Below, piece after piece: positions 1,503-62,863 of a DNA stretch of 64,000 nt. A model generated the notes under the pieces. That model had not been told where the DNA came from and ran no database searches. It saw only the letters and a program-made list of their open reading frames with translations. Source of the DNA: Hydrolagus affinis (lineage: Eukaryota); the NCBI GenBank assembly GCA_012026655.1, contig JAAILG010000030.1, positions 62,001 through 126,000 on the forward strand. The letters are read 5' to 3'. Both the position numbers and the translations under genes were made by a program. Position 1 is the stretch's first letter; each line of letters opens with the position of its first letter.

Positions 1503-1586
1503 CTCGAGCGACGTGATGGTACAATACTGCATCTCCGTAAAGAGGTCCTCCAGTTGCAGGAGAAGAGGGATAGGCTAACATGTGAG
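1503..1586 (+). CDS. PMFBP1: Coiled-coil gene exon 1 in window (28 aa, LERRDGTILHLRKEVLQLQEKRDRLTCE)
   Basis: Acceptor ctcttttgcag, donor GAG|gtattt; 84 nt, phase 0-0; heptad pattern. Confidence 0.9.
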
Positions 1587-1896
1587 GTATTTTAAATCTT
1601 TTCAATTTTATCTTTATTTCTTGGGGGAAAAAATGATTTACAAGAGAGAAATGTATTTGCGAGGGCTAAATGGATTAGGCTGATTTAAATCCAGAGTGTA
1701 AGGGACATCAATAGTATTGGCTTTGTTGCTCACTGCCACCATATTGGCTTCCTGAGGACTTGAGCACAGCCTCATAATATAAAGTATTTGTAATTCTGCC
1801 AATGTTTTCGTTTGCCTTTTTTAAAAATTTACTCGAGCATTGCGATAATAGAAGTAACATTTTGGTATCTAGAATTTTCAATGTAGTTGTTGGTAG

Positions 1897-2043
1897 TTGG
1901 ACATACAGGAGCAAAGGATTTACCAGCTGGAAGGAGAGCGAAAACAGGGAGTAACTGAACTGGAGAAAAAGCAGGGCTGTCTCCAGCAGCTGCAAAGGGA
2001 GCTGCTCGCAACCAGAAATCAGTATGAGGAGGCCCAAAAGCAG
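1897..2043 (+). CDS. PMFBP1: Exon 2 (49 aa, LDIQEQRIYQLEGE...RNQYEEAQKQ)
   Basis: Weak GU-rich acceptor ttgttggtag, strong donor CAG|gtaagg; 147 nt open frame. Confidence 0.88.
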
Positions 2044-2984
2044 GTAAGGAATTTACTTTAGCCTCAGGCTTTAAGGCCCTCCTCATCTGATAAAGCACAT
2101 TTTTGATTTGAGGTATAAAATGTATTTAGCTCTGTTTTTACTCGTGGAGTTGTTATTCTATAGTTAAATTAATTGATGATCATTGAGATTTTAAAAATGC
2201 ATTGTTTGGTCCTGAACTGTTCTGGCTAAAATATTAATCATTGAGCAATTTTTTTTCCAAAGAAAGTATCTAAATTTGCAGGGCGAAAAGAAGATAACTT
2301 GCCCATTTTTTTTAATCTTTCAGACACAGGCAAATTAATTTAATTTTTTTTTAAAAATCTCAATGACATCTATGTAAGATTCCTTTAATTTGAAGCCCAA
2401 AATAATTAGTTGCCTTAGCAGTCTCATCAATTACAACAGCAGAATTAGAAAATCTTCCATTGTGAGGGAAAAGAAACTGATGCCAATATATTGAGTAATG
2501 CTAGGCAATTAAACAAAGGACACCAATAGTTCACCAACTGGTGTGACATTTCAGTTAATGCACTGATCTGTTAAACCTTTGACTCAGCAGCTTACACAAT
2601 ATCATGCAGATTATAATGCAGAATTTTTGAAATAATTTTGTATAAAATTGTGGAACTGAAAAAGTCAAATGATTAAAATCTTATACAGTACTACTTCACA
2701 CTACTCTCTTTATAACAGTACCCTTTTTTTAAACAAATGTTGCCAGAATGTTTGGACAGTGAAGCCATTAATTCTCACTTGTAACTGATTGCTTGGATTA
2801 CCTGGGGTTTATTGGGGAAGCACTTTGCACCCTCATGGGTCAGAAAATTATCTATCTGTTGAAGGAAATCGTTAATTGTATTACCAAGGTATTGAGGTCA
2901 TCTGACACTACAGTTTCAATGGAACAAGATCCCAAAAAAAGGAAGATCCATAGCATGTCAATCAACATCTGAAGTAGAAAGGTG

Positions 2985-5150: not shown

Positions 5151-5234
5151 CTTGCAGAGAGTAATGGATTTCTATCCCAAGTTAAAGCTGAGAACCAGAC
5201 CCTGAAAGTCTATAAATTGGAACAAAATACAGAG
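5151..5234 (+). CDS. PMFBP1: Exon 3 (28 aa, LAESNGFLSQVKAENQTLKVYKLEQNTE)
   Basis: Acceptor ttaatcttag, donor GAG|gtaaga; 84 nt, phase 0-0. Confidence 0.85.
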
Positions 5235-6642: not shown

Positions 6643-6855
6643 ATTGAAGAACTCACAGGCACCATTCAGAGCCTTGAATTGTCTGCCACAAACGTGAATG
6701 CAGCATTTACTGCTGAAGCAGCAGAGAAGCACAAAGAGCTAGTATCTACAACAGAAGAGCTTGAGCAGAACCTTGCAGAAACACAGGCTGAACTCCGTCG
6801 AAAAGATGATACCACACAAAAACTAAAGACACAACTGCAGAACACCAGCCAATGG
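6643..6855 (+). CDS. PMFBP1: Exon 4 (71 aa, IEELTGTIQSL...KTQLQNTSQW)
   Basis: Acceptor tttttttctcttaacag, donor TGG|gtgaga; 213 nt; overlaps ORF 6679..6876. Confidence 0.92.
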
Positions 6856-13325: not shown

Positions 13326-13409
13326 GCAGAAGAGACCAAGTTGCAGCTCAAAGGGGTGCAAGCTGAAATAGAAACCCTGAAAACCAAATGTACTTTTGCA
13401 GAGAACGAG
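13326..13409 (+). CDS. PMFBP1: Exon 5 (28 aa, AEETKLQLKGVQAEIETLKTKCTFAENE)
   Basis: Acceptor ttttcatcttttcag, donor GAG|gtatga; 84 nt. Confidence 0.9.
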
Positions 13410-14532
13410 GTATGAATAATAAAATGGCAATTGGAATAGCAGATTGCACGTAGCAAATGCAAAATCGTATATTATCATTTATAATCATTGTGGGTGGATT
13501 TAGCCTTTTCTTTTTATTGCAGTAGAACTGGAAATAATTGAGTATCCAATGGAACAAAGATTTTTCATGTATTCTGATAACTGTTAATGCTTTGCACTCG
13601 TCTTGTCTAGCTGTCTGGTCTGATCTCCGTGCCAGACAGTCATTGCACTGTGAGTCAGTTTTAATGTCTGGTAAGCACTGTAAATTTCTACAGCTGCCAT
13701 TTTGGAATTATGCACTATAATAGAATGAAGTAAATCTGGGACACATAGTCAAAGAGAGCCACCAACTGGATGCTTTGTGATACTGCAATTATGACGATGG
13801 ACGACAGGGGAAGAAAAACAGATATTTGTAGCTTTTACATTTACCGGTAAATGTGACATTTTGTGCCTGAGTCTCAATGCACACTTTAGATTTGTGATTA
13901 TAGAACAAAATTTATCAGTAAATATATCACGTTCGCGGTTTGCTGATTGTAGAGAAGTTGATCCCTTCCGCCTCGGGTGCTTTTACAGATGAGATTTGTC
14001 TCATAAATTGTATCTAACATTGGGAAATGCACATCCGAACATTTACTTTACAGGGCATCATTGGAGTCGAAGCTGTGGCTTAGTCTTTGTTTTGGTTATA
14101 CTGTCTATCTCAACTTTTAAAATATGCTTTGAAATACAACTGCTTCTTTATTGTAGTAATAATTATTACACTTTTCGAAATGCTTCCTCCACTTGTGCTT
14201 TATTCTGACACGGTTTGGGGACTGCTGCGGAATTCAGGTGTAAAGTCCATAAATATTATCTACAGTGTGGAATGCAAAAACAAATGTATTTCAAAGGGTA
14301 CCAGGAACCCAAACGTAATGTATTGTGGTGGTCTTATATGTATATATATATATATTTTTTAAAAAACAAGGGTACAAAAGAAAAGGAGTAACACAAAAGC
14401 AGATCTTTTGTAGCAATAAGTGGCCACCATTTTTTAAAATATTCAGCAGTAAATTGAGAGCTGCAAACTAAATGAGTCCATTATGGATTAGGTTAGGAAG
14501 ACATGACATGGCTGATATGTTAAGTAGATTTT

Positions 14533-14869
14533 TAATAATAATAATCCTTGCATTTGATCTAGCACTTTTCACATCTTATCGACGTCTCAAAGCGCTTCAC
14601 AGAATATACTGTAAAGTGAATCGACTGTATATATTTGTGGACGAATCGCAGCAGCCAATTGCGCACAGCAGCGTCCCCACAAACAGTCATGGATTGAAAT
14701 GACCAATTTTATTATTGTGTTTTTTTTTTGAGGGATTATTAGGCGCATGGAGTAAGGAAACTTGTCCAAGGTTTCGCCCTGACCTGCCTGGATTCGAACA
14801 CAGGTCTCCCCTGCTTGGTCTCCCCAGCTTGCAAGACAAGTGTTCTAACCACTGAGCCACAGGAGCTCC
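14533..14869 (-). mobile_element. Full-length SINE (dominant family) with a 14-bp internal duplication in the tRNA head
   Basis: Reverse complement of the 439-744 copy; A box tggctcagtgg; ggtctcccc(t/a)gctt twice at 14803-14830; (taa)n tail. Confidence 0.92.
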
Positions 14870-14989
14870 AACTTCCTTCTTTGCATAGAAAAATTGTAGT
14901 AAAATTCCTGACTCATTTGTTCCAACTCAGGAATAATTTACATTAGTGGGAATAAGTAATGTATCTCTGCGATATGAAAAAAGACAAAT

Positions 14990-15825
14990 TAATGAAATGT
15001 AACAAGGCCACCAGGTTTAGGCAAGTTGTTGCCTCGGTAAATTTTAGCTCCCAAAATGTTGAAGCTGTATGTAAGAAATGAAACATTTCATTTCAGAAAT
15101 GTTCAGAAATGTTCTCCTATTATTCAAAAAGGGATTGAGACATGATCTTGGAAACTGTATACCAGTTAATCTAACAACATCTGTAGGGGGAGAATACTTG
15201 AGTTGCCTTATTCAGGATCTTATTGATGTGCATCCAAACAGCATAGTGCCTATATGTTATTATCAGTGTGACTTCAGCAGTGGATTATGAGAGAAAATGT
15301 TAATGTAGCTATTAACATAGATAAATGTAAGTAATGCACATTGGAAAAGTAACCCATGAACATGTGTACATGCTGAAGATGTGTTCATTAGCTGAGGCAG
15401 CAAGGATTTGTGCGATTATTGATCATTCACTGAAGGTTTCCAGTCAATATGAAGCTGTTATCAGCAAAGCTAATCAAATACTTGAATGGATCTCAAAAGC
15501 AGTTTACTACAACTCAGAAGAACTTATTCTAACCTGGCATAGATCACTGTGAGTCTACGTTTAGAATATTGTGTGCTGTTTAAACATCCCACCATCTAGG
15601 GGCTATTACTGTATTAAAGATGGTTCAGAGAAGAGGAATAGGGATGATCTAAAAGTCGCTTTCACTGAGGAAGAGAAGATTGAGGGGGATATGTTCCAGG
15701 TCTTTAAAGTGATGATAGGCATAGATGATATAGATTTAAGCAGGCTGTTTCAGTTTGACAGCAAATGCAGCTCTAAGAGACATAGGATTAAAATGAGCAG
15801 CATCAAGTCTAGAGAAGACTTTCAC
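14990..15825 (+). mobile_element. Degenerate, internally deleted CR1 LINE ORF2
   Basis: LFKKGLRHDLGNCIPVNLT; MHIGK; IIDHSLKVSSQYEAVISKANQILEWISK; GDMFQVFKVMIGIDDID, all CR1 reverse-transcriptase region motifs, with stops and frameshifts. Confidence 0.88.
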
Positions 15826-17565
15826 TCAATGGTTCTTATTCCAATGATTCCAATATGGACTGTAAGGAAGGGACATTTTTGTCTTTGAATTGAAGCAGGC
15901 TTGGGGTTGAATAATGCACTATATCAAATACAAAAAATGTATACAACTCATCCTATAAGACACCATTTTGAGCCACCAAAGCTTCCCTCTCTATCCTGTG
16001 GTTGGTTCGGGCCCGTGGAGCAGTGGTCTATTGGAGGCCTGTGACAGGATAAGGCTGGAGGCCATGACGTGGTCTTCCAATAGATCAGAGGCCACTAAGT
16101 TGCATCAGAGCATCCATATCCTACTACAGTACCATCTCACTTATCTCACTGAACTCTTTTCCCTCAGAGTGACGCGTTATCTGGAGTTTACTGTATGTTT
16201 TCATACCACCATACCAGTTGTTTTTTACTCCTTTGAATGTACAGGTCAGGTTTTGGTCCTAAAGTTGCAACATAAACATGTGCAGAAGTGCCTTCTGTTA
16301 GTTTTTTTTTGTAATGTGTTCAAGGTACAGTATTTATTCACCTGTTTAGTTCTACTATCAATATCTTTATCTAAATTCTTTCAAGTTATGACGTTATTTC
16401 ATACACTTGAAAGGATAAATATTGCTGTTTTCAGACCCACTGATATGGTACTGTATAACATACTGGTATCATTCACCTTGAATGTAGCAGTAGTTCCGTT
16501 CCATGCTAGGTTTTGTTGATGCACTTCAATGTAATCAAAGTGAACAGATAAACTAAAACTTTGCTCTCCAGGAGCATAATTGGGAGATGCGAGTATTATT
16601 CTAGACTATGATTCTACCTTGTCATTACTTTGTTTTCAATTTAGAATTTTTTTTTAAAAATGGTTGATTGCTTGGCAATCAATTAAAAAAAAATCGTGTG
16701 AAAATAAACTTAGCTCACCAGAATAAGAGAATAGAAGACATGAGAGGACACAACTGAATGCATGAGATATTTAGCATTTTTGATGATGCTTCAGCCAGTA
16801 CCTTTGCTTGAATGGTGGTGTATTAAACTAATTTAGCTTTTGAATTTTAGTAACACAGGTTAGGTTTTTATTTGAAACCATTAATTTCTTTCCCACTATC
16901 TGTCTACAGCAATCAATTTTTAAGGTATCCATTTAATATTCCTAAAAATACACTAATGAGAGACTGGTGTTGTGAACAACTAACATTACTGATATAATCA
17001 CATGACTATCATGATTCATTCAGTCACCACAAAGTAAATATATTGCAGTTAATTATTGGAGCCTGGAATGAGCTTTGGATTGATTTATGAACTGAGTAGA
17101 TACATTCCGCAACACATTTTTCTTAATTTGTTTTTAATGAGTCTTTCAATTAATTTTCCTGGAAACATCTTAATGATGTTCACCACGGGTGTTGATGAGA
17201 ATTTGTGTGGTTATGACATTAAGCATATTTTCACAGAAGATGATCCACATTCAGGTTTTCAGGAACTGGATTCTATAAAAGTTAAGTTGAAAACATATTG
17301 CTAATACCGTGTCGGCAGCGGTAATACACATTTGATTGTTGATAGTAGAAAATGCTGGCCATTTAAGGTAACATTTAATTCATTGTAGGCCAGTAGTTTT
17401 TATGCTGTTACCAAAAAATAGTATCCTTCATTCTGAGAGAATAGTTGGATCACCAGTAAAGAATGCTGTGCAAGGAATTCAGTAATGATGTGGAACCTTT
17501 AATGGCGGGGGCGTAGTTTTTTTCCTTGTAGTTGGTTTAATGTTAGTTTTATTATCTTCTCGTTG

Positions 17566-17584
17566 ATGCCATTAGATGGCACAT
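17566..17584 (+). promoter_or_regulatory. CTCF-like motif
   Basis: ATGCCATTAGATGGCACAT versus core CCACTAGATGGCAC. Confidence 0.35.
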
Positions 17585-19539
17585 AGACAGGGAAGATTAG
17601 AGTCCATAGTGGCTCTTTGTCCTTAACTGAAGTGAAGTTAATAACATCTCACTGTCTGTGACAGAAGATTAGAGTTGATAGTGTGATGTCAGTATTGGTG
17701 CACTGGAAGATACTATCGTCTGGTCTGACTAGAATCAGATGTTCCTCTCTATAGTTTGATTTCTGTGTAACTCCAAGATCATTTTTATAGTTGGAAATTT
17801 GCTATAAATTCTGATTAATTGATATCACTGCTAAATTATACTCATGTGCTTTCACAATCTCCTTTTCTTTTTTGTTTATTGAATCCCAACCTTTTAATGT
17901 ATCCAATATTACAGCAGTGACTTGTGCAAAATGGTAATATTCTGGTGCAGTCGAGTATTCCTTGAGTGAAGCGAAACCATGAACTTCTGGACCACTATGA
18001 ATCCCAGTTCATACTATGTACAGTACTTTGCTTTGAATTGACATAAAATGGAGCTGATTTGATGACAAGAATTCAGTATAAATCTGGTTTCAGACATGTG
18101 ATCATGAAGCAATTGAGTTGGTCCCAACCTTCTGAATTCTCTTGTGGAAATAGTTTGCCAGAAAATTGATTTGCATCACTAGTATAAAAGCGAGCAGTGC
18201 GAATCAATTTGTTGCCCACTCTAAAATAGTTTCTGAAAAGAAGTTTTAACCGGCAGTCCTCAGTATATTAAAGACCTCGTCATGCGACTGTCTCTTTAAT
18301 AATATGAAATAAATGTTCTGTATTGGTGTCAAGAGTGTAGAAATCTCAGCCTTGTGTGGTTTGGGAGTAAGAAATATAAATCCAGTTTTCCACTCCTAAT
18401 CACTTTACTGCAGTATAAGTAGAGCATTGGTGTATGTACACCAACATCTAGGATAAGATATGCTGGGTGGAGAAAGGGGACTTTACCTTGCATCTAGCTA
18501 ATACTGTATATCACCAAGGTAATATTGACACTGAGTAAAATATGTGAAAAACATTCCATAGATGGACTCAGCACAAACGTTTGAACAATAGAGAAAAATC
18601 ACAATAAACCTACATAAACCTTTTGAACAGTATTCAATTCATGGATGTCTGTCTCTCTGTCTAAGAGACTAAAGACAACCTTTTTCAATTTTATCGGACC
18701 AACTGGTTGGACTACATTTTCACTGGAAAACACTCAGTGGAGTGAAATAGCGGACTTTCAAATCTTTAATATTCTCCATTGGGCTAAACAATGGCGTAAA
18801 ACACCTTAAACTGAAGCCGTTCCCGAAAATTGAAAATTCAAGAGTTGAAGCCTAAGTACCTATTCAGATCTCCTTTTAAAAGCCTGTAATTTTCCTAAAG
18901 ATATATTTTTCATGGGCATGAATAGAACCCCTGATGTAACACAAAATTCCGCTCTGGAAGAAAAGCCAAGGTTGTTCTGGGGGTCAAATAATTTAACAGA
19001 TCCGTTCTAAGAAATGAGAGGGTCTGTCTGAAAGCCTAAAAGCAATTTAAATGTAAAATCATTCAATTGAGGAGTAAGAATAAAATCATAAGATCTAAAA
19101 CTTAAAAACAGCCTTAAATAATGCTTCAAGAGGTCTCTACGCTGATTGTTAAACAGAAAAAATAATAATTGCCCTCTTCCTAAATCCTGAACCCTGTGCT
19201 AAAGTAGGCAAGCGTCTTCAAAAAAAAAAGAAATGTAACACAATTTTTTGAAAGAGGTGAATTTACAAAGACCATATCCAATCCAACACCCTCTTAAGAA
19301 ATCAAAAACTTGGCTTTTTAAATCTAGGAAGTTTTTGTCAGAATATTAACTTAAAAGTTAAATGACTATTTTTGCAAAAATCAAAAACCTTTACCAATCC
19401 AATGTTTGTTTTGTTGTGGTCAGCTGGATGCCTTAATACATGTGGTAACCAATCACCATGCTTGAAGAGTATCCAAACCAAACTGAGAGTTCCATGCATC
19501 CCACCTACATATGGAATTTCCTGTGTGGAAATGGAAGGA

Positions 19540-19690
19540 ATTTTTACAGCTCGAAACAAACACCAGCTTTTGATCCTATCATCTGATGTGAAGAAAGCAT
19601 TTGACCATGCAAAGTGGAAGCTCTTCATTATGTCTTGGGAAAATGATCTTTGGGCTTTCCACTTAGGTTCTTTGCAGCTAATCCCACATT
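19540..19690 (+). mobile_element. L1-clade reverse transcriptase fragment
   Basis: LILSSDVKKAFDHAKWKLF resembles the L1 motif lSlDAEKAFDrveW. Confidence 0.6.
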
Positions 19691-19725
19691 AGCCTCAAAT
19701 TAAATCACGATCACCCAGAAGCATG

Positions 19726-19824
19726 TGATTCGGCATCCCTTTGTGGAACTTACTGCAGCTCCTTGGGATGTCCTCCTGACATGAAAGGCGCTGTGTAAGT
19801 GCAAGTTGTTGCCGTTATTATTAT
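19726..19824 (+). mobile_element. L2-type 3' tail
   Basis: ccttgggatgtcctcctgacatgaaaggcgctgtgtaagtgcaagttgttg. Confidence 0.75.
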
Positions 19825-20340
19825 AATGCTGTAAGAGATGTTAGTAGGAACAGTAATAGGAACCTAGCAAGATAGGAAGCTGGCAGTGCAAATGAATGAA
19901 CACGTCTATGGTACTTGATGGGTTAATGTTTTTGGAGCATGCAGTGTGATGTAGTCTGGAAAATGATGTTTCTTTGATTTGTTTTCTACCAGTTTCTTTG
20001 CCAATCCATTTTTCAGAAATCATTTTGGTGCTGAGATGGAAGGGAATGAGGAGAGTTAATATACCATTTATTTATGAACTCACCATAGCAGTATCTGTAG
20101 ATATATATTCTTTATTTGTTCCCGACGATAATAATAAATAAATGCTACAATTCTATGAAATTGTATCGTATCCACTTCATTTTAATTAAAAATGTGAACT
20201 GTAAAGGGTGATTAAACAATCTTAATTAATTTGAGTCAATGGCCTAAGATTTTCCCCAGTGTTTTTGCTATATTTTAGGGTAATTACAATAGAAGGTTTG
20301 ACAAATGAAAAATCATAATTGTTTTGGGAATTCCAGGATT

Positions 20341-21490
20341 AAGCTAGCCTAACAAAAGCGTTTAATTAGTCTAAGCACAGCTTTAATTAAAGTTTGTTTT
20401 GGTTGAGGTCAGTTTGTTTTCGATGATGTTACAATCAATGTCAGGATGAAATGTGCAAGAGAAGGGCATTTTTACCAGCCAACAAATCCCAAGATAAAAT
20501 TGATCATGACTATTTGTAGGACATTGTTATGCCTAAATTGGGTGTCATATTCCCCTACAAATACAGTTTGTGAAATGTTTTAATATAATCTGCACCATAT
20601 CAAACTCAAGAGCTTAGAAAACACTTCAAATTACGCTACTTATGTTTCCTGTAGAAGAATATAACAAATCCTTAATTGAGGCCAGGAAAAGCATTAAAAA
20701 TAATGGATAATGTGAATGGACAACAACAAAAGGATTATAATTCATTCTATGCCAAACATCATTGAGTTCAAATAGTCAGAATTTTCTGAACCAAAGAATC
20801 AACAATGCATATATAAAATAAAAACACTAGGTTAAGTAAGGCACTCCAATCAGAATTCTGTAATCTATTAACTAAAACAATCCATATGTCTGCAACTGCA
20901 TAATAGAAAATACACTGAAATGTCAAACGTAAAGGTTGCAGTTAACTTAGTTGTTTAATCGGCTATAGCAATTATTACAAACAATGGTACACAAGTTCAA
21001 AATTAATAGAAATAGAAATGACCTACTTGCTATGTCAACAAGAACCAGAGGAAAACACATGAAAATAAAGGACACCCAATTGAGTAATCCTTAAGGAGTT
21101 ATTCCTGACTCCCAGAAATAATTTAATGAAAGATTGTTTCAGTTTTTTTTGTATCAACAATTTATCGTCATTTTCTATGGTGTAATGATGCTCGGGTTCA
21201 GTAGAGAGCTTATGTACTTTGGAGTGATGGGACGCAGGTTCAATTTCTCACTCTGTTTCCTGATCTTTGAATATATCACTGTGTTGTCCATAATGTTAAA
21301 ACATTTCAAATATTTTATTGCATCTTAATGTGCAGAAGTGAAAACTCTACAAGCTAGTCTAACACAAGTGTTTAATTAGTGTAAGCAACTTAAGTGTGAG
21401 TTGCTCTTATTGTTTCGGTGGAGGTCTGTCTGTTCCATATGATGTTAATATCAATGTCAGAATGAAGTCTGCAAGAGGAGCGCGTTTAAG
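20341..21490 (+). repeat. Diverged direct repeat pair of about 130 bp (20341-20470 and 21351-21490), 1010 bp apart
   Basis: Both copies read aagctagYctaacaMaagYgtttaattagt...gaggtc...atgatgtta...atcaatgtcagRatgaa...tgcaagag. Confidence 0.85.
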
Positions 21491-22664
21491 TCCACTTCTA
21501 AAGCCATGCCAGCCAAATGTTGTTATCCATAAAAGGTTTGGTAAGTGTATCAAAAAACTTAATTTTAAAAAGTTTTACAGATTGTTGCAAAGTTAATTAA
21601 TTATTAGCTGGTGTAAAACAGAATTCTTTCACCAATAACTGAATATTGGTAAAACTGTTATTCAATACAAGAACCGAAATAACAAACTTTATAAACTATA
21701 CCCGTACATTTTGTGCTGATGTTAAATGCTGATGAGATACTGGTTATTTGCTTGTTGATTTCAACTGAAGGGATTAAATTAACATTGAAGGTCAAACTGT
21801 TTTACACTCAAGAGTTGTACAGGTGAAATGCTACATTGATATAATTTTTTCAATAAAAATAAACGGTGAAATTATTGAGAGTGGAACAAAAAATAATATA
21901 ATATTTGGTTCATTTCAAATTTTTAAATCAGGAAAACAAATTTTCCATTTTACGTAGTGTTTATGAGAATGTGTCTTTTTGGGTTGCAAAACTATGGCTT
22001 TGCACTGTTTGCAGCTAAGGTAAAGTTTTGATTGGCTGCAGACCTATTTATGTGGTGGGTTGGCAAGGTCTGATGGCAGATGTTTGTCATACTTTGCAAA
22101 CCATACATCTTGCATTTTCATTAGTTTTTATTCCAAAATAAAGCAACTGAGACCACAAAGTGTACCCATTTTTTGATGTGGAAAGTTTTAATATTGGTTG
22201 TGTGATTTACTTCAGTATTAGGTAACCAAGGAAATAGTATTTTGACCTAGGGGATTGATTAAAAGACCGTATAGACGAGTCTATAGTGGTCTTAGGAATA
22301 TACAAGAGTATTTTGGCAGCTGTACACAACACAGATATTGAGGAATGGTCTCTGAGTCAAATTTGGCAGCTACCTGTTTGACAGTGTTCATTGCCCAAAT
22401 GTGTGTGCAAAGGACAGCACAGGCAATTTTTAAAAGATACCTTATGAACTTTATGGACAATTATGCTTTTTGTATATTTGCTTTAAACGGTTCAGTGAAT
22501 CTCTCCATTCATAAATATTGTGGCAGATAAGATTGAAGCACCATAGTTGCTGATGTCAAGAGAAAATGAAGTATATGGCAAGGAAAGGAAATATAGCAGA
22601 AAAGCATAGCATTCATTTGAAATTAATTTTATACAGCAACTTTTTTGAAACTTTTGAAATTTGT

Positions 22665-22824
22665 TATAATAATAATCCTTGCATTTGATATAACGCTTTT
22701 CACATCTGATTGACGTCTCAAGGCGGTTCACAGAATATACTGTAAAGTGAATTAAATGTATATTTGTGGGCGAAACGCAGCAGCCAATTTCACACAGCAG
22801 TGTCCCACAAACGGTCGTGGATTG
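22665..22824 (-). mobile_element. 5'-truncated SINE (dominant family)
   Basis: aataatccttgcatttgatataacgcttttcac...cagcagtgtcccacaaac. Confidence 0.9.
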
Positions 22825-24084
22825 TGTAACATCTCTTGACACACACAAGATGTATGGCTTAGGAGGCTATTCAGTATCTACATCAGTTAATCAAAATCTG
22901 AAATTCGAGTTCTATACGTTAACATTTTTTTTAAAGTCAGAGATTTCGGTAAAATGGCCCAATTATTGAAAATGCTGTAGAGTAGATTATTATTATATAT
23001 TTTTATTTAGTGGGAAACACAATGTCTGATAATCAGCGGTTTCATTTGGCATCCCAATTTTTCAGAAAAGCTTTCCCTTGCGCATTGTTTTATGAAATAG
23101 CGCAAAGTTGGCTCAGTATAAACCTTAACCAGTAACGGTGCAACTGAAATAGCCATTCTCATTGTACTGTCTGTTGTACTGTCTGCAGTATATAAACCAC
23201 GTGGCGACGGGTTTGATGATAATCTTTGGCTCATTCTCACTTCTTTCTGTATTTTTATACAATCTTTAAAAAGATTACACAATTAATAGCAGATTGAAAT
23301 AGGCATAATGGAAATGGGACAAGAGAATGGCTAGAATATTTATTGGAGCCACCTACGCAGCTTAAAATGGCCATCCGAGCAAATATACCCTCACTTTAGT
23401 TACCAAAATAATTCTGTGGATTCTTCAGACAGTGTAGGGGAGGCAAAAAGCAAATAAAGCCCCGACCAGTCTCAACTAGTTCAAATGTGTCATCACCAAG
23501 CAGAATGAGTTAGATGAATGCAATGTTTATCAAAACCATGCCACTAATCCCCCCCACCCCGAGTTGAACTTTGTAACTTGATCTATTTATAAATGTTAAC
23601 ATGATATACATTAGTGCAGCTAATGTGTGCCAAAACTTGAACACCTGTTGGAAAAATAGCTGCGGTAATGCTGGAAATGACTAGTGAAACAAACAGTATC
23701 CCCAAGGTAGACGTGCTCGGACACCCTGGCTTTGTTAAGCTAATAATTACTGGTGAATTGAAATGCTTAATTTTTAGTTTCTGGGCACTTCATCTCATTA
23801 AATTAACTTGTGGCGCCACCACAACTGTATCAGACAATTGCAAATTACAAATCTATTATTATCTTTGGCAGCGAAGTATCAACTCTTAACTTGTGTATGA
23901 ATATCTCTAAAGGAACCCTACTGTATACTGTGCATAGCACATACAAGAGCTTCATAGTCTGAAATCTGACCTCCCGACAATCTGTCTTCTCTTTATCAAG
24001 ATGTCTTTTGAATGGCTGCTGAGTTCAATTCATCAGTTGCATTTATATTCATTATGTTACCCAGCATTCTTCTCTGTGGCTATC

Positions 24085-42013: not shown

Positions 42014-42160
42014 ATTTTTCAACATGAGATGCAGATTGAACATCTAAATCAGCAGCTTAAATCAACAGAGGCAGTGAAAGTGACCAGTGATGAGACAATC
42101 CACAGCCTAGAGAGACAGCTTCGAGAGTACAGAACACGCCATCAGGAGATGGCAGAAGAG
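42014..42160 (+). CDS. PMFBP1: Exon 8 (49 aa, IFQHEMQIEHL...RHQEMAEE)
   Basis: Long pyrimidine tract ending cacaatag, weak donor GAG|gtcatt; 147 nt. Confidence 0.9.
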
Positions 42161-44244: not shown

Positions 44245-44412
44245 GTGAAACGATGTGAAGAAACAATAAGCCAGTTGAATGAAGAGCTTTCATCTATTCA
44301 GATTGTTCAGGATTCAACTAAGAGGAGCACTGAGGTGAAGGAAGAAACAATCCAACAACTGACAACTGAGACTGAGCTCCTACAAAACAAACTCAAAGAA
44401 TCCCAATTTGGG
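44245..44412 (+). CDS. PMFBP1: Exon 9 (56 aa, VKRCEETISQL...KLKESQFG)
   Basis: Acceptor ttacttattctag, donor GGG|gtaatg; 168 nt; ORF 44245..44574. Confidence 0.9.
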
Positions 44413-49843: not shown

Positions 49844-50023
49844 ATGCTGGAAATGGAGGAACACCTGAATGCCACTGAATTTGAATCTGACACTTTAAGA
49901 TGCAAACTGCAGAATAAAGCAGAAGACTTTCAGCAGCTGATGGACCAGTTCAGGGAATGTCAAGAAGCCCTGCATCAGATGACCAACAAACTGAATGAAA
50001 CAGGGAGAAATGCAAACAATGAG
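49844..50023 (+). CDS. PMFBP1: Exon 10 (60 aa, MLEMEEHLNA...GRNANNE)
   Basis: Acceptor ttgtgttttgcag, donor GAG|gtacat; 180 nt; ORF 49799..50035. Confidence 0.92.
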
Positions 50024-51977: not shown

Positions 51978-52061
51978 ATTGCGAGAAGGGAAGAAAACAT
52001 TTGTACTTTACAGAAGCACATGGAAGACTTGCAGTATCAGTATACCGGCTGTTATTCTGAA
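51978..52061 (+). CDS. PMFBP1: Exon 11 (28 aa, IARREENICTLQKHMEDLQYQYTGCYSE)
   Basis: Acceptor tctgcag, donor GAA|gtgagt; 84 nt. Confidence 0.9.
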
Positions 52062-52502: not shown

Positions 52503-52670
52503 TTATTACACAGTGAGGATGTTGTGGCGGAACTGAAGAGCAAGTTAGCAGATGTTAATGAAGAGTCAGCCCAACAAGCAGTGACTCTCTCAAACGTTAC
52601 TTTGGAGAAGCAGAAGCTGGACACTGAACTCAGTGTCCTTACTGAAAAACACATAACAGCACAGAGTGAG
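52503..52670 (+). CDS. PMFBP1: Exon 12 (56 aa, LLHSEDVVAEL...KHITAQSE)
   Basis: Acceptor ttgtgtgtgcag, donor GAG|gtacgt; 168 nt; ORF 52467..52799. Confidence 0.92.
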
Positions 52671-53318: not shown

Positions 53319-53402
53319 GTTAACACCAGGGATCAAACCATTTTGAAACTGAAATCTGAATTAAAGACTGCTCAGGAAAACGTCAAGAGTGCATGGGAGG
53401 AG
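53319..53402 (+). CDS. PMFBP1: Exon 13 (28 aa, VNTRDQTILKLKSELKTAQENVKSAWEE)
   Basis: Acceptor tttgctttatggcag, donor GAG|gtaagt; 84 nt. Confidence 0.93.
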
Positions 53403-53646
53403 GTAAGTCCTGTAGGCTTACTGATGGATTTCTGCTTTTATCATAATGCCAGGTTTCCCTTTCCTTTTCTTAAGGACCAGTGACTTAATTGGGTTTTAAG
53501 ATGCCTGAAAACTCTATGTTCTTAATGTTAAAACCATTGACTTGAAATTTAACATTGTGCAGAATTTTGAAAAGTTTGGATGCCATTTTCTCATAGCAGA
53601 CACTGCAGATATTCTATATTCGAGCAAAAGACTGTCAACATGCCAT

Positions 53647-53701
53647 TAATAATAAATAATAATCCTTGCATTTGATATAGCGCTTTTCACGTCTTCTAGA
53701 C
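53647..53701 (-). mobile_element. SINE/LINE 3' tail fragment (dominant family)
   Basis: aataatccttgcatttgatatagcgcttttcacgtcttctagac. Confidence 0.88.
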
Positions 53702-53785
53702 TTCACCCTGCATTATGTACATTTACCTCAATGTGACTCACAGATATGTTCCTCTTGTTTTTTGTCATTAATTATCAATACAATA

Positions 53786-53988
53786 TCTTACGCCACACAC
53801 CGAATAATAATCCCTAAAAAAAATTGGTCATTATATTCCACGACTGTTTGTGAGACACTTCTGTGTGCAAATTGGCTGCCATGCTTCGCCCACAAATATA
53901 TAGTCAATTCATTTTACAGTATATTATGTGAAGCACTTTGAGACGTCTAGAAGATGTGAAACGCGCTATATCAAATGCAAGGATTATT
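53786..53988 (+). mobile_element. 5'-truncated SINE (dominant family) with 10-bp target-site duplication
   Basis: Body and tail match 439-744; ttgtcattaa at 53762-53771 and 53987-53996. Confidence 0.9.
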
Positions 53989-54229
53989 GTCATTAAATCT
54001 GCTCCATTATTACTCCAAAATTATGAAGACTAACAAACTGAATTAGTACCTGGTGCCTTAGTTGCTTGCCAAGTATGTATGATTCAAAGATAGTTTGTTG
54101 TTGGTAAGAACACTTATGCGCCAAGTGAACTGAAGATGAAGTTACTCAATTTGTTAGTTGACATTTGTGCTGGCACTCAACTAATCGCAAAGATTTGTCC
54201 ATAAAATTCCACATTGCCTGTGGATGAGA

Positions 54230-54900
54230 ACCCCTATTTCGTTTTGAGAATGATTAACACAGATGTCATTGATCTTGTCTACCTCCTTCATACACTTCCT
54301 GAAATAGTGGGGCAAACCAACTTGGTGCAATTTATAAAATTTATAAAGTGCTGGGAAGCTCCTCCAGGCAAGTTCCCAAGCAGGACATGTCTGTATTCCT
54401 TTCAGTTCAATGGTTCTGTCAAGATGTTCTCTGTCCAGGTCTGGCATTCTGCTAAGCGTAATGTCAGTAAAGAAGGCGTCAAGATCACTTTCCATTGATC
54501 CATACTCTGAGGAGTATAGATGTGAGCAGAATGCTTTCAACTCGGTAGTGATTCTCTCACAGGACGTGATTAGTTGGCCAGAGCTGTCCCTCAGGGCCAA
54601 AATTAGGGTAGAACTGTCCATCACCCTAATAAATCTTGCTTTGACTTCCTTGTCTTCTCCACATGCTTATTACAGTTGATTTTTGATCAAAATAATAACC
54701 ATTCTGTCTTCTCACTTGCTAACCTTTTAAATCTGTATTTCTTCACTATCAATGCCCTTGTAAGATTAGGGCATGTCTGCAATTGAGCTCTCTAACCTAA
54801 ATCATCCTTCCTTTTCTGCCTACTACGTGTGACGTGATCCATCCACTGAGGCAAACTTTAAAGTATTCCAGAAGACTATATGTCTCACTGTCATACAACT
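54230..54900 (-). mobile_element. L1-clade ORF2 linker-region fragment
   Basis: ILALRDSSGQLITSCERITTELKAFCSHLYSSE...DAFFTDITLSRM...LDRTIELKGI, typical of the L1 endonuclease-to-RT tether. Confidence 0.75.
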
Positions 54901-56561
54901 AGGCATTATTCTGAATGTATTCTGATTTCCTGAAATACATCAAGGTAGATAGTGTGGGACCTTGACATACTGCAGATAGTTATGGTAGCATATGTGTCCA
55001 TGAGGTGAGGTAACGCTAGTTTCTGGAGTAACTATTATGAACTAGAATAAGAAGCTATCCTTCCTTCTAATTGAGGTATACCATGGTATGTATATCATTT
55101 ATGCCAAGTATTGGGCTGTAGATGTTGGCAGAAGTACTTCAAATAATAATGCACAATTTGTTGACATTTTCTCCCCCACAAAACACAGGAAAGGTTTGTT
55201 ATGAGATTCAGAACTGGAAAAAAAAATAGGGCTTTGGCATTTGTGTGAGGGGACAGATATTATCTAGTTTTAAGATGGCACAGCTGCCCACTTCATAAGG
55301 TAAGTATCACTCTTGTCATTGCTCAGGTCACAGTGAAGGATGACAATGTAAGGATTATTATTATTATTTAACCTTTCCCAAACAAGAAGTTGGTGTCTAT
55401 GGCTGTATCCTTACACTTTTTTGTGAGCTCTTTATCTCTGAGGTGACATAAAGGAACAAGAGCGATCTCGTGTGTCTCAAACTTCAACTTGTTTTTATAC
55501 CAGTTCCCCCAACTTGTACATTTTTATCTCATTTGTGGTACCTGAGCCCATTTGCTATGGAATTTCTTGTCTTATTTGATTATTGGCAAGGTTTATTTAT
55601 GTGAGTTTTCCTCAAACTTCAAGAGAAATACAAAAAGCAAGTGTATAGTTTCCAGAATCCACTCTTTCAAGTTGATGTAGATCAGAGACCTCAACAACTC
55701 CTAAGATACCCACTGATTGCATTCCTGTAACACTGCTCTTCCAACTCTACCCTTCACATTCACGAAGGGTTTTTCTTTCCAGCCTTCAGATTAATGGCTC
55801 TCCACAATCCCTGTTTAATTTGGAATTTAATCCCGTGATCTCTGCTTTGTGAAGCTAATATCTGGAGCTCTACTGCAAGAAAGACAGAACCTGTTTTCTC
55901 CTAACTTGTGATGGCTCTTTTTGCTGTTTCAGTGGACTATTCTACACATCTTAAATCATTGAGAAATATTGTCTTTAAATTACCTTAGAAGCTGGTGTTG
56001 TCAAAGCAGCATTGCATCTCTCAAACTCTGTCAGATAGTAACTTTAAATTTCATAAGTAGTACAAATAATTGATATGAAATGACATCTTCCCCACCCTGT
56101 GGATTTGGCTGAAAATTTTTATGTAGGAATTTTTTTAGTTAAATGACAGGTTCTGAAAGCAGCAGCATATAATAGTATCGCCTTTTTCTTGTGCATTGTA
56201 CATTTGTGGCTTTATTTATTTATTTGTTTATTCAATTATTCATTCATTTCTTTTATTTATTCATAAGTGTACTGCGTTTGGGAAGCTCATTATAGTCCAA
56301 GGGCATGTTTCCAAAAAAATGCCTATGTGACTTGTTTGTAATTATTCTTTGATCAGACTAGAAAAGTTACTCATTGTAAAATTGAAGGTCTTCCAGAAAA
56401 AGTAAGGTTTCTGATTATAGCCGAGTTGCTATCAAGTTTGATCCTACCTATTAATGATGTTAAATATAACACATTTTCAGCCACCGCCTTGAGTCTTGCC
56501 CATCATATATCTCATACCTTTTATATTCTTCTTCTTTACTACATTATGTGAGTTGAATATA

Positions 56562-56657
56562 TTTTTCCCACAAAATACTCAGTCAATTCACTTTACAATC
56601 TCAAAGACGTGATAAAGTGCTATATCAAATGGAAGGATTATTACTATTATTAATAAT
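56562..56657 (+). mobile_element. Internally deleted SINE 3' fragment
   Basis: cagtcaattcactttaca joined to aagacgtgataaagtgctatatcaaatggaaggattatt. Confidence 0.75.
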
Positions 56658-57660
56658 ATCTAGTTTTTGATTAACGCTAAGAGTAATGGTAGGATTTTAA
56701 AAATTCCTTTCTTCATTTAAATTCTAAAATGTAAAACTTTATATGCGTTCTCCCTGCCACCCCCTTGTTTTCCAATCTGTTTGTTTTCTTCCTTATTCCC
56801 ACTTTGTCTTTTTTATTGTAACTTTTCTTTAAACAATTTCCTCCTTGCTTTTTCTCGCTGACTTGACTTGTCTTGTGAATGACTGAAAATCTATTTCGTT
56901 CCTCCTTGCCAAAACACATCTTTTGCTTGAGGATTGGCTGAATACCAATGGATTTCAAATCAAAGAGGTTTCTTTATCTCCTCGCCTCACAATGCGAAAC
57001 AAGTATTTTATCGCAATCCATGAGTTTTAAAAAACCTTAACCTATTTGAACCTATTCATTAAACATTATCAAACAAAAATGTTCAGGGAGGTTAACATAA
57101 ATGCTAATCTTTCTAATGTATGTATAGGCTGAGGGGCTGGGGGAGGTCATTACATGTTGTGTCAAAAGATAATAATGAAAAAAAGTTCGGCAATATGTAT
57201 ATGTAATTCTTATCTACCTTCAGGGCAACCAATCAGGCTCCTTTAATGACATTGTTATGCATCAGTGTTTCCCCTGTCAAAGTGCTTGTGTATATGAAAG
57301 TATTAGCAAATGTTATTGAAGAAGCATAATTGTGGATCAAGAGTTGACAAAAGCAAAGATGTTGCAATACAGCAAGAGACTAAATACAAGCCGTGGGTTG
57401 TTGAGTTTAGACCAGAGATTCATTTTATTGCTGTTATAAAGGACTTATTTACCACAAGAGTGAACCTGCTTATTCATTCAATTAGTACATGTACTTGCCA
57501 TTTTAATATATCATGTCCACATTTTTAAAGATAATATTAATTGAAGTCACTATGTATTGTTAGAGAATTCCAAATGGCTGGTAATATTGTAGGAATGGAA
57601 ACTTTTGACTTCACGCCTTCAGTTTCTCTTGGTGTTTTGGTCAAAAATCCCCCAGAACAA

Positions 57661-57837
57661 AATGGCCATTCACTTCATGGCTGTTTGTTGGACATTGCTG
57701 TGTGCAAATTGGCTACCACATTCACCTACAGATACAGACAGTACAATTTAGAGGAAAGTCCCATTAAGTACTTTGGGAAGTTTTGAACATGTCATAAGGC
57801 ACTATATCAAATGCAAGGATTATTATTTATTATTATT
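57661..57837 (+). mobile_element. Older Deu-type SINE 3' half
   Basis: ggctgtttgttggacattgctgtgtgcaaattggctacc...ggcactatatcaaatgcaaggattatt. Confidence 0.75.
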
Positions 57838-58418
57838 GTTAGTATTCACCTGCAATATTTGAATTATAAATATTTACAGAGATGTTTATATAAAGCACAT
57901 CTCAAAATGCTTCACAAATTTGTACTCAAATTTGTCTGTATACCAGGAAGTAGGAAAACATAATTGCGTATTAAAGAGAACGTTGAAAATTTGGTACCAA
58001 GGGGGTTAATTGGCACGATTACAACTGGAAACTGTCACTCGCTTCCTATCTTCTTCATCTGACCTTTTATCTTTCAAAATTATAACAATTAAAATTGGAA
58101 TAAAGTGTATTCATTTCTGTCAGTCTTATGTGGGAAAAATTACGTGATATTTCAAAATGATTTACATGAACTTTTCTCTCATATTGAAGCAACCGGCATG
58201 ACATTAATTTTTAATGATTTCTTTCTGCTTCATTTGGAAAGAGATTGTGGCAACGCATTTTACAGGTAATCAAGCGTATAGCCCTGTACAAAATAATAAG
58301 CAGTATGCCGACAATTTAAAAAAAAAGAGTAAAAAAGGTTGAGGTCAGTGACTAAAGGTGAAGCGGTAATGTATTCATTGCTGGCAAATTACTGGGACAT
58401 TTGCTTTCTTTCCTCTAG

Positions 58419-58430
58419 CTTAGAAAACAG
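58419..58430 (+). CDS. Candidate 12-nt microexon (LRKQ), phase 0-0
   Basis: tttgctttctttcctctag|CTTAGAAAACAG|gtatgt: strong acceptor and donor 12 nt apart, TGC about 15 nt upstream; no transcript evidence. Confidence 0.3.
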
Positions 58431-61400
58431 GTATGTTTAATCATCCAGGGATATTGGAATTCTGATTGACCAGCACTCTCCTAGAAAAGTGTTTCTTAAT
58501 TTTGATTGATGAAGCGGTTTATCTTAGACATTTTTTTCCACTCTGCATCATGAAAATGATATTAGAAACTAAATGAGATTCAGAATTTCCTGTTTGACAA
58601 GCTTGGTTGATGAAAGGGTTCCATGTCAAGGTCTGACACACAAAAATTATATGCAAATACTGTTTGAGCTCCATTCAAAATTAATCAAGGGGCAAAAAAG
58701 CAGACTATCATAGGAGCATGTTCATATTTCTGGCTCATTTTAAATTGCCAAAGGGTGTTTTCAGATTAGTTAGTTTGAGAAATTGGGGTTTGACAACGAT
58801 GCTAAAGCTCGGCTTAGCCGGATTTTTGATGACTAACGCTTTAATTTTCTTTTTCGTCGCAGATTTGCTGGCATTTATTTTTATCCTTGTGTTTTTTAGA
58901 ATTGTTAACATAGTTTTCATGCTCTCTTAATCGTCTCCAAATCAACATTCCACTTTAAATAAATGTATTCTCACTCAGACACCTTCTTTTCATCTTTTGA
59001 AGACTCATTGTATTGCTTTTTAAAATATTAATGGTAATATTCAATGCATATTATAACATAAAAAACAAAAAGATGAAGGGAAATGCAATTTCACTGTTAA
59101 ATATGCCTTAATTGTGCATCATTACAGTACCATCCATTCTATTGTAAGCATATTTTATGTGCTAATATATAAGTGTAATTCTAATTTGTCAAATAACCCA
59201 CGTTTTCCCAAATATGTAGCTCAAGTGGACAAAAAACAAAAGTACAGGTAATAAAATAAGTAGTAGGTACAAAATGGAATTGAATTAATTGGCAGAGATT
59301 TTGGATGAACAAAGGTTGGATAAACCAATTGTGGCAAGACATATAGAACGAATGAAAATAAAAGCAAAAAAAAAAACTGTGTATCCTCATGGGAGACAGA
59401 TCAGTTACTCAAAAACAGATGATGAAACGTAGCTGATACAGAACGTCAACTAAAAATATTGTGGCATTCAACTTTAAAATGTCAATGTAAATAAATTCTT
59501 CTGACTCTTCAAACGCTTGATTAATCTGTAACAAGTAGGGAATATGGAAGGGAAACATTTCACCGGTTACATAGCTTTAGGCTTTTTCTTTATTCTCACT
59601 TTGTTTGCATGTTGAATTGTAGCATGGAACATTCTCGTATGATGTAACTCGGAGTATTTTTAAAGCGCACAGTATAACAGGGTATGCTTTCATTAATGAA
59701 GAATAATGAGCAGCTAAACCGTATTGAAAAAGTAGGGCATCTTTATCTCTGAAGACACTTACCAGTTCTAAATAGCAGAATAAGCCTGTACGCTACATAT
59801 CAAATTACTTTAGCCATTTATCCTCCCAGATTTTTCATTTGCAATGTTGTAATGCAATGTCCATTTGCTGTGAACTACTAACAGAATCATGTGAAAGATG
59901 AATGCTTCAAATGTATTGAATTATGCGCTTGATAAATAACGCATAGTGAAGCTCAGTGAAATAAAACTAAATACAAGTAGAATCATTATATTTAGAATTA
60001 AGATAATCATCGTTTTGAAGACATCTTTGCTAATCAGAGTAAAAGAGTAAACTTTAATTTAAACTAATCTATTTTAAGATTCCTAAGCATGGTCTGTAAA
60101 CCCATGGCCCACTTTTTCCTACTTTAACTCTCCCCTCTTTTGCAGGACTGAGTCACTTTGGGTTACATATTAATCACGGGTTGCCACTCACTCAGCCCAG
60201 CCCAAGAATCAAGCCTAAAACCTCCTGATCCATGCACTACTTTTTTTATGCTGATCTAATATAATCTGTGAATAACACATAGGGCATACATTTTAATGCC
60301 TTCGTGCAAATTTTATTTTTAATTGTTATTCATGTTTTATTAGATCTCAACTGGCTTAAAATTTGTGTATATAATTAATGGGAGGGGATTTCAAACACAG
60401 CAGATCTTGTGAAGGGAAAGGGATCTTGACTCTATCAAGGATTTTTGTATACCTAGTCATCTATATCTTAGTTGCAGAAGGGTGATATTGAAGGAGGTAA
60501 CTACTGTTCTCTTCCTGATCATAGTCGTCTTTGATAAAACAAAGAGTGACCTAGGGAACTTTCTCTCACTCCTCTGGCAGCACTACTTTGCGCGGAGCCA
60601 CACACGAGTAGCTCAGGGTGACTCCATCTGTCTGTTACAATTCCACTCAGTGTCGAACTTTAATGGCACAGCCATTACTAGAAATTTACCTTCAACATTC
60701 CATCAGACAGTTTGCTGTTTAGAAAAGAGAGAATATACACTGAGGTGAATTGTGGGTGTGATCCCTCATGCTCCTCCTCCATATATAATTAATGAGGTGT
60801 GATTTGTGAGTGGGGTAGCACAATTTCCTCTTTCTCCACAGAGATTATCCTATTTCCCCTACTCCTGTGTTATTTGTTTGGGTTGTGGAGAATAGCACTA
60901 TAATTGGATTTACTCTCAAGGCACTTAATGATGAATAATCCACCGAAATGCACAAAATTTAATTATATTGTATTAAGTTTTTTTTTAAATGCTTTCCTCA
61001 TCAATACATAGTCAATGAATGGAAGCTTCAATTACCAGTGTCCTGAAGGCCGTGCTGTTTTGCTTAGTATATATGATTGACAGTCATTTGCAAGAATGCT
61101 TTGGTTGCCTACATGGAATTATTTAAAAATGCAAACTTTCAAACAGTGCTGAAGGGGGTTACTAACAGATGCCACTTGATCACTATCTGATATGAAGAGT
61201 GACAACGGAAAATGGGGCGTTGCACAAGTTGACTTTATGCCACAATATTGTCATCCTTCACTGTGACCCGAGCAACACATTAAATATTGGTAATAGTACC
61301 TGTCCTCTCTTGGATCTGAGAATGGGCACATGTCATTTACCTAATTAATTTTCAATACCCCTCCTTTTAAACACAGAGATCAAATATGTACTAAGATTGA

Positions 61401-62620
61401 ATTTTTTGTGAATTCCACAAATTAAATGCTATCTGAAAGATTTGCCATGTATTAAAAGTGCATTACAATAACATTTACATTAAAAGGCTAACAGGTTGTT
61501 GGGATTTAAAGACGTAGATAGATTTAATACTAGCTGATGCATCTACATTTTTGTGGTATAACCTACTCAATCAGCAGCAGTGATAGACAGGGCGATAATT
61601 ATCTCACTCTAAAGATGGCTGTTCCTGGAGGAATAAAACAAAACACATGTCCTGTTATTCTTCATGACTAGAATTTGTTTTAAACACTGACAACATTTAA
61701 TATTTAACAAGCTGATGTTAAGCTGGAATAATATATTCTTTACTGGTTAAAATACATTTTAAGTAGACACTGCTCCCCAAAAGATCCAAGTGTTTTATTT
61801 ATGAATTTCACATTACTCCACCATTTAATGTGTTCATCAACATAAATATGAAGAGTACTGATCATAGATGCACAAAAATCATACTTATGAATGTTGAATT
61901 CTATAGCCTCAAACCTTGTAAAATTGACCTATTCAAAGCAGTATAAACTAAAACGAAAGTGAAATCATGTTGACTGTTCCTCACTTTGTAAGATTCTCAC
62001 ATATTTATACGAAAGCGCCAACCTATATGCTCTCATTTTATAACAGAAACACATTCAGTATTCACAGACATACACATACACAAACACAGATTGACAAGGG
62101 CATTGTTTTTACAAAGTCCTCCTAGGCAACAAACATACACACCAAATCAGTACAGAGTGTTGCTTCTGGTTTTAACATTCATGGTTAACACTGGCATGTT
62201 TGTGTCTTATCCGTGTGAATTGTGCAGAATAAGGACTTAATTTTTATGCTTTGGACAATTACATCAGTGCTGCTGGTGGCTTTCATTTACAGAATTTACT
62301 TGTATTTACTTGACTGAACAACTGAATTATGTTTCTTCTCTTCCCCTCCCCTTTTACATGTGAGCTACAAGCTAAGATTTCTCCATTACGTTCATTCCAT
62401 ATTTGGTCCTTTCCAAATTTACAACACTTTATTTATTCAAAACTGATGGAACTGTTTTGAAAGGAAATTTTCCACAGTTACACCAAGAACATGTCCCAAA
62501 TGACTGCATATTTATTTGAAAGCTCCCCTTCACTGGTACAGATGGTATGTATACGTAGAGTAAGCTGCTGGAAACACAAGGTAATGTGAGACCTTCCAAA
62601 TTGTGCTTGTGCATCCTTAG

Positions 62621-62863
62621 AGTCAGAACCAGGAGAAATCCATGGATCAGCTGCAGAAAGAACTGGAAGCCAGCAAACGGGCACATGAATCGGAAATGGA
62701 CCGCTTCAGCCGTGAAAATGCTCAACTTCAGAAGGAGCTGGATTCTTGTACCAAGGAATTGCAGGAGAGAATGGCCAAAATGCAGCAGTACAAATGCACA
62801 GTGGACGTGCTAAATGCTGACCTGCAGCGCGGACATCGGCTTCATCAAGAGGTGGTAGATGAA
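62621..62863 (+). CDS. PMFBP1: Exon 14 (81 aa, SQNQEKSMDQLQKELEASK...LHQEVVDE)
   Basis: Acceptor gtgcatccttag, donor GAA|gtaagg; 243 nt; ORF 62642..62992; the exon with recognisable PMFBP1 similarity. Confidence 0.93.

Follow-up and report, generated by a model that had tools for sequence, protein, structure and literature searches.

That exons can match the repeat unit of the protein they encode is already known from several gene families. The cytoplasmic coiled-coil tail of chicken BG is encoded by 21-nt heptad exons (PMC5938342, PMC4046983), collagen genes go back to a 54-bp primordial exon that was duplicated, then deleted and fused with its intron phase kept (PMC3308698), and the 90-bp phase-2 exon arrays of Tetrahymena leucine-rich repeat (LRR) genes are read as clonal exon duplication (PMC6564038). 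Molecular rulers and spacers are identified either from a length that stays conserved or from experiments in which the length is altered (PMC5082667, PMC8598163). Here we describe a 64,000-nucleotide stretch of the Hydrolagus affinis genome (GenBank assembly GCA_012026655.1, contig JAAILG010000030.1, positions 62,001 to 126,000 of the forward strand; referred to below, at its full length, as the window), which carries 14 coiled-coil exons that we assign to the middle of pmfbp1. Mouse PMFBP1, which helps to keep sperm head and tail joined, is testis-specific and sits between SUN5 and SPATA6 within the head-tail coupling apparatus (PMC8363609). The predicted rod encoded in H. affinis follows a 28-residue repeat, and we consider it probable that a single 84-nt phase 0-0 exon was duplicated in tandem to form it, earlier than the divergence of the jawed vertebrates.

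The exon series lies on the + strand, the - strand giving nothing comparable in a blind scan, in which rough splice matrices and coiled-coil composition served to score AG...GT segments and neither phase nor length was given a prior. The original prediction, made from the letters of the window alone, had proposed a heptad-quantised rod with exons of 28, 49, 28, 71, 28, 53, 28, 49, 56, 60, 28, 56, 28 and 81 codons; all 14 were found, flanked by AG and GT, stop-free and in phase 0-0, and no extra exons were detected in the window's introns by the blind scan or by orthologue profiles. Ten of the 14 lengths are multiples of seven codons (7n; binomial p 2e-6 against 1/7, with the exons not independent if they derive from duplication), 53, 60 and 81 equal 7n+4, and 71, described in the prediction as 7n+8, is 7n+1. 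The heptad as quantum was not borne out, in that autocorrelation, shuffles and an exon-start profile identify the 28-residue, four-heptad module as the unit. Autocorrelation of the rod peaks at lags 28, 84 and 56, and lag-28 similarity exceeds 1000 of 1000 heptad shuffles in both family genes, that is pmfbp1 and a paralogue in the same genome (0.28 vs 0.04; 0.50 vs 0.09). Within the 56- and 77-codon exons, where no intron lies between the modules, the first 14 residues resemble those at offset 28 (0.54) but not those at offsets 7, 14, 21, 35 and 42 (-0.33 to 0.26). Furthermore, when exon starts were profiled with each exon left out in turn, most exons gave their peak at offset 0 or 28, with exceptions at 21 (the window's two 49-codon exons), at 50 or 33 (71-codon exon) and at 53 (81-codon exon).

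Aliphatic residues, counted across 51 modules, occupy positions 1, 8, 11 and 15 at a fraction of 0.84 and position 18 at 0.65, against 0.12, 0.25 and 0.25 at positions 4, 22 and 25, respectively. The module consequently reads as two firm and two weak heptads, with a firm core from 8 to 18, weak positions at 22, 25 and 4, and the introns located in the weak stretch. Exon junctions fall at one of the module's four heptad boundaries, which is predicted by exon duplication and not required by register-keeping alone. The protein repeat has a mean column identity of about 35%, and at the nucleotide level none of the 14 exons was covered by self-hits at E 1e-8; as the lack of nucleotide likeness between units is expected for an ancient event, we infer the duplication from the protein. 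Myosin-like charge alternation was looked for as well, with no dominant harmonic across the 51 modules.

We propose that one 84-nt phase 0-0 exon would have been duplicated in tandem in an ancestor of the jawed vertebrates and that later intron loss would have fused modules, giving 56 codons as 28+28, 77 as 28+28+21, 49 as 21+28 and 81 as 53+28, while the other lengths could reflect single-heptad losses and insertions of one or four residues. Since each exon starts at heptad position a and nearly all end at g, removal of a whole exon would spare frame and core, and unequal crossing-over, exon loss or exon skipping could shorten the rod in steps of about 4 to 11 nm with both intact. By analogy with mouse, the protein is likely a scaffold in the sperm neck, where variation in rod length is likely tolerated, not tuned. 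The exon modularity itself may be a by-product of the gene's origin.

Heptad register was assigned on two scales by a fit of the hydrophobic a/d pattern to the 21 residues at either end of each exon. As predicted, all 14 window exons start at a on both scales, and a fit to the window sequence alone that disregards the first two residues still places the start at a in 13 of 14; the last residue falls at g in 11 to 13 of 14, depending on the scale. Hydrophobic residues at exon positions 1, 8 and 11, also anticipated, occur at fractions of 0.79, 0.93 and 0.82 in the gene's 28 phase 0-0 exons. The canonical a/d hydrophobic pattern is present, with module positions d4, a22 and d25 mostly polar. The four-residue excess had been interpreted as a coiled-coil stutter, which agrees with the 81-codon exon, where the register switches between residues 15 and 26, but not with the 60-codon exon, in which the 5' register is held to residue 53 and the excess lies in a polar tail. 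In the 71-codon exon the register shifts by one within an Ala-rich middle, and in the 53-codon exon it shifts late. A complex prediction for two copies of Hemitrygon residues 507-806 reached a score of 0.04 and has no bearing either way.

The window exons form the middle of a stop-free 39-exon pmfbp1 model of 1828 codons (window coordinates -59639 to 109962), which was built on the 197-kb contig, guided by relatives' proteins, and comprises the gene without its first exon and its last one or two. The predicted all-symmetric architecture holds inside the window, where all 15 bounding junctions are phase 0, but not for the whole gene, as 11 of the 39 modelled exons are not 0-0 and phase 1 and 2 junctions occur inside the rod in the C-terminal half; 20 of the remaining 28 exons have 7n codons. 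For orientation, symmetric exons make up 41% of human exons in one study (PMC3632108). A phmmer query with the next exon downstream of the window returned four proteins, including Chiloscyllium pmfbp1 isoforms (NCBI name) and a Callorhinchus fragment that matches its corresponding exons here at 79-92%, and further searches added 28 and 6 relatives from rays, turtles, amphibians, teleosts and echidna, most of which bear the name PMFBP1. With shark and ray pmfbp1, tblastn gave collinear chains of at least 30 segments along the contig, mostly at 40-83% identity. Moreover, in a tree of 16 rows, midpoint-rooted only and with two long branches, the window gene joins pmfbp1 of sharks, rays, turtles, echidna and teleosts and is separated from a second clade by a dividing branch supported at 100/100. 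By NCBI names, collinear exons and tree, the window gene is the pmfbp1 orthologue. The non-mammalian forms found have 1200-1990 residues, and the echidna entry has 847, without the N-terminal window modules. Pfam gave only generic coiled-coil matches on the 14 window exons, all below every cut-off, and on four full-length relatives one ATG16 match and no PMFBP1 family; a word search with the 81-codon exon returned no match. Clear family members carry database names as varied as 'early endosome antigen 1', 'CEP250' and 'myosin-1-like', so that long PMFBP1 forms are often misnamed in databases.

The paralogue is located on contigs C465 (-) and C4277 (-), with its C-terminal part on C5258 (+), and its protein is about 37% identical to that of pmfbp1. 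The blind scan called exons of 84 and 147 nt on C4277 and of 84, 147, 168, 180, 84, 84, 168, 243 and 231 nt on C465. Eleven of the 14 window exons have a paralogue counterpart of identical length and phase. The blind scan called nine of these counterparts, two more, of 53 and 56 codons, were placed manually by homology, and the counterparts of the remaining three window exons would fall between C465 and C4277. In the 16-row tree the second clade comprises the paralogue and the Scyliorhinus, axolotl and Gastrophryne entries. As both clades hold cartilaginous and bony vertebrates, the architecture would predate their split. The axolotl entry of this clade bears the name 'PMFBP1-like', and the longer C-terminal part of the paralogue on C5258 had no Pfam match. 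Two further observations concern pmfbp1 beyond the window: at the exon ending at window coordinate 109962 the best donor is GC, not GT, and the paralogue has GT there; at 79226-80604 a stretch of 95 codons is interrupted by a phase-1 intron, whereas the paralogue encodes the corresponding part in one uninterrupted phase 0-0 exon of 88 codons, so that the two genes differ here by one heptad and by an intron that was either gained or lost.

RefSeq isoforms are computed models, usually RNA-guided. They agree with the expectation that any exon can be skipped without losing frame or core register insofar as whole exons are dropped with the g|a junction kept, but fewer than half of the internal isoform differences are 7n (12 of 27, p 1.5e-4; distinct differences in 8 species, with changed N- and C-termini and two Eretmochelys entries left out). 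Those that are not 7n measure 1, 2, 4, 12, 22, 26, 34, 41, 46, 48, 68, 96 and 116 residues, several of them being whole exons. Eight of the 14 window exons have counterparts that isoforms lack, one or two at a time, and further ones are missing from single entries, as follows along the + strand. The 28-codon exon at 1503..1586, a single module (orthologue profile 47 bits, 84-nt paralogue counterpart), is skipped in Siphateles isoforms. The next (1897..2043; 49 codons, 21+28) is also among the eight and has a weak acceptor, with position 1897 supported by a 147-nt paralogue exon and a Siphateles isoform gap. The counterpart of the 28-codon exon at 5151..5234, which like those at 13326..13409, 40784..40867, 42014..42160, 44245..44412, 51978..52061, 52503..52670 and 53319..53402 is backed by splice sites and the orthologue profile, is skipped in pink salmon and Caretta isoforms and missing from both Chiloscyllium entries. 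The 71-codon exon at 6643..6855, placed by splice sites and register fit, has a counterpart skipped in Caretta; its last heptad (6835-6855) is missing in Chiloscyllium and present in only some Caretta isoforms, pointing to a second donor site precisely one heptad further upstream. A 26-residue counterpart of the 28-codon exon at 13326..13409 is skipped in a Mauremys isoform. The 53-codon exon at 39307..39465 is backed by splice sites, the orthologue profile, the register fit and the 159-nt paralogue exon, whose ends were set by hand. The counterpart of the 28-codon exon at 40784..40867 is skipped in a Scyliorhinus paralogue isoform, and the 49-codon exon (21+28) at 42014..42160 is missing from Chiloscyllium, Narcine and Caretta entries. 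Downstream of the 56-codon exon (28+28) at 44245..44412, the 60-codon exon (56+4) at 49844..50023, placed by splice sites and a 180-nt paralogue exon, is missing from the Hemitrygon and Hypanus entries and is skipped together with the 56-codon exon at 52503..52670 in Caretta isoforms (116 residues). The 28-codon exon at 51978..52061 is missing from Chiloscyllium and turtle entries, that at 53319..53402 also has 28 codons, and the 81-codon exon (53+28) at 62621..62863, with a 243-nt paralogue exon, is missing from the Narcine entry. By species, the missing residues number 28, 7, 49 and 28 in Chiloscyllium, 60 in Hemitrygon and Hypanus, and 200, 81 and 56 in Narcine.

Two exons of the relatives are absent from the window. 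The 25.9-kb intron at 13410..39306 is without the 49-codon exon present at this place in sharks, rays and Caretta (best profile score -1.4 bits), and the 9.2-kb intron at 53403..62620 is without the 56-codon exon present in sharks, rays, turtles and the paralogue (best -2.1 bits; the same profile scores 37.1 bits on the paralogue's exon). A genome search for both exons with single shark or ray segments found none and was insensitive, as the second query missed the paralogue's counterpart too. The aligned rod spans 1175-1452 residues in five cartilaginous fishes and 1070-1461 residues among four teleost entries reaching the first window module, where in both groups entries may be isoforms. The PMFBP1 rod does not show the length conservation that is expected of rulers and spacers.

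Could the pattern have been produced by choosing boundaries that fit multiples of seven? At four of the 14 exons (1503, 1897, 5151 and 49844) the rough splice matrix scores a neighbouring site higher, three of these sites being out of frame and the fourth, the acceptor at 1909 competing with 1897, in frame. Yet the blind scan returned exactly the predicted ends for 10 of 14 exons (7 of those 10 are 7n, p 1e-4), the paralogue yields identical lengths, again in a blind scan, and the 39-exon model reads through without a stop. In the alignment, database proteins have gaps whose edges coincide with the predicted junctions, the four weak ones among them, and such whole-exon gaps support those ends; in addition, profiles from orthologues alone found all 14 exons (22.7-97.5 bits). 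An artefact of this kind is therefore largely refuted and, in our view, extremely improbable. One DNA run and three single-cell RNA runs carrying another organism label were compared with 43600-63500, giving repeat-derived reads with 0 to about 2 on exons; among the shown reads, mostly repeat-derived, there was no exon-exon joint, which has no bearing on expression. Contigs of the DNA run span 43600-52717 with about 2% differences and do not bridge the intron 53403-62620. A different objection is that phase-0 introns might be gained or retained at g|a in any long coiled coil, with pmfbp1 as the tail of the distribution and no duplication. We scanned, equally blind, exons of non-muscle myosin, of a gene we take by recognition to be a sarcomeric myosin heavy chain, of ERC1/2 and of a rootletin-family gene of the same genome, a small and hand-picked control set whose paralogous exons are not independent. 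Phase-0 exons of the controls start at a in 25 of 46 cases against 1/7 (p 2e-10), which means that part of the a-start is a general trend, independent of pmfbp1 history, and the E, Q or K at exon ends of pmfbp1 (24 of its 28 phase 0-0 exons) fits donor consensus and position g alike. However, the family exceeds the controls in starts at a (33/40 vs 25/46, p 0.006), and blind calls that are both 0-0 and 7n amount to 24 of 47 in the two family genes vs 8 of 62 in the controls (Fisher p 2e-5; window alone 6 of 12, p 0.008). Junctions, moreover, sit at one of the module's four heptads and not at any, and unused AG sites show no enrichment at g|a (10-16%, or 5-8% for AG|G), so that proto-splice bias explains the a-starts of neither family nor controls and was rejected as their cause. 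We judge a general intron bias without duplication to be very unlikely. ERC1 and ERC2 each contain two 168-nt phase 0-0 exons starting at a.

The original prediction had inferred a modular ruler whose length splicing or evolution can tune. Applied to pmfbp1, such a tunable spacer would have selection keep the exons register-true, so that regulated splicing or lineage-specific exon loss sets the length of the rod and with it a distance in the sperm neck. The position of mouse PMFBP1 between SUN5 and SPATA6 (PMC8363609) would suit such a role. Exon lengths and phases were apparently kept in both paralogues since early jawed vertebrates, isoform differences are all 7n in Siphateles (four) and Chiloscyllium (both), and nearly all indels among the five cartilaginous fishes are whole exons or single heptads. 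Nevertheless, 15 of the 27 isoform differences are not 7n, rod length differs by about 280 residues among the cartilaginous fishes, and no tissue-regulated splicing or link between length and phenotype was seen; intron positions are also commonly conserved without selection for register. We therefore regard the tunable spacer as rather unlikely. Similarly doubtful is the view of PMFBP1 as a strut that telescopes in the sperm neck of vertebrates, its length set in steps of about 4 nm as splicing and exon loss in particular lineages add or drop 28-residue modules. In this view PMFBP1 would also be the extreme of a wider rule that places phase-0 introns of long coiled coils at g|a; such a rule is hinted at by the myosin and ERC genes of the same genome. 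Tandem duplication of an 84-nt exon, the origin we prefer, has to be set against several points, to which the a-starts of the control genes belong. Five of the 11 modelled exons that are not 0-0 sit inside the rod, downstream of the window. The duplication, deduced from a protein repeat of such low identity, cannot be dated or ordered, and a 28-residue repeat that formed at the protein level and later gained introns at the edges of its modules would leave the same picture. The register calls depend on a simple fit of hydrophobicity rather than on a structure or trained predictor, and the exon boundaries on genomic DNA and protein homology, with no RNA junction for H. affinis. Species differences rest on single database entries and may be isoforms or annotation errors, and the relatives' 49- and 56-codon exons could have been lost here or dropped by the assembly.

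Apart from pmfbp1, the window contains twelve copies or fragments of dispersed repeats of up to about 300 nt (467-748, 14525-14808, 27471-27768, 53787-53997, 57650-57838 and seven more), which have the size of short interspersed nuclear elements, are very deep in the DNA run and abundant in the RNA runs, and have no Rfam or transfer RNA (tRNA) match. A 161-codon open frame at 54181-54666 (-) had no Pfam match at 0.01 and is presumably a fragment resembling ORF2 of a long interspersed nuclear element. A perfect tandem duplication of 53 nt lies at 26574-26684 inside the 25.9-kb intron. The window as a whole gave no Rfam hit, no tRNA and no informative long open reading frame.

Together, a gene family involved in human infertility gains a structural grammar in the form of a 28-residue module, laid out exon by exon and apparently shared with the paralogue since early jawed vertebrates. 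From the module map one can predict the in-frame exon deletions or splice variants likely to be tolerated, the exon ends give structural studies of the rod natural places to cut it, and the rod of non-mammalian PMFBP1 exceeds that of the echidna entry by several hundred residues. Additionally, the a-start trend in unrelated coiled-coil genes, which proto-splice sites do not explain, is open to a cheap genome-wide test. In a literature search, most subscription journals being outside its reach, we found no paper whose title or opening deals with the exon architecture of PMFBP1, an exon module of four heptads or a bias of introns towards g|a; the four-heptad PMFBP1 case was thus not found described.

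Compared with the systems introduced above, ROCK2, WbdD and the synaptonemal proteins resemble pmfbp1 in being long coiled coils of diverged sequence with about 1 nm per heptad. Unlike these spacers, the pmfbp1 rod varies by whole exons. The chicken BG genes share heptad-quantised coiled-coil exons, an exon number that varies (in BG among genes and alleles) and, in BG, a tail length changed by splicing. BG exons, however, are single heptads with a split first codon, so that a true heptad spans two exons, whereas those of pmfbp1 have 28-81 codons, phase 0, an a-start and a four-heptad module, and no homology is claimed. With the Tetrahymena LRR genes, which encode a solenoid and not a coiled coil, pmfbp1 has in common a fixed exon length and one intron phase, although young LRR copies keep a nucleotide likeness that pmfbp1 exons lack. 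Collagen differs in its Gly-X-Y triple helix, its 18-residue unit and a far higher repeat regularity, yet it followed the same route of duplication and fusion that we propose for pmfbp1.

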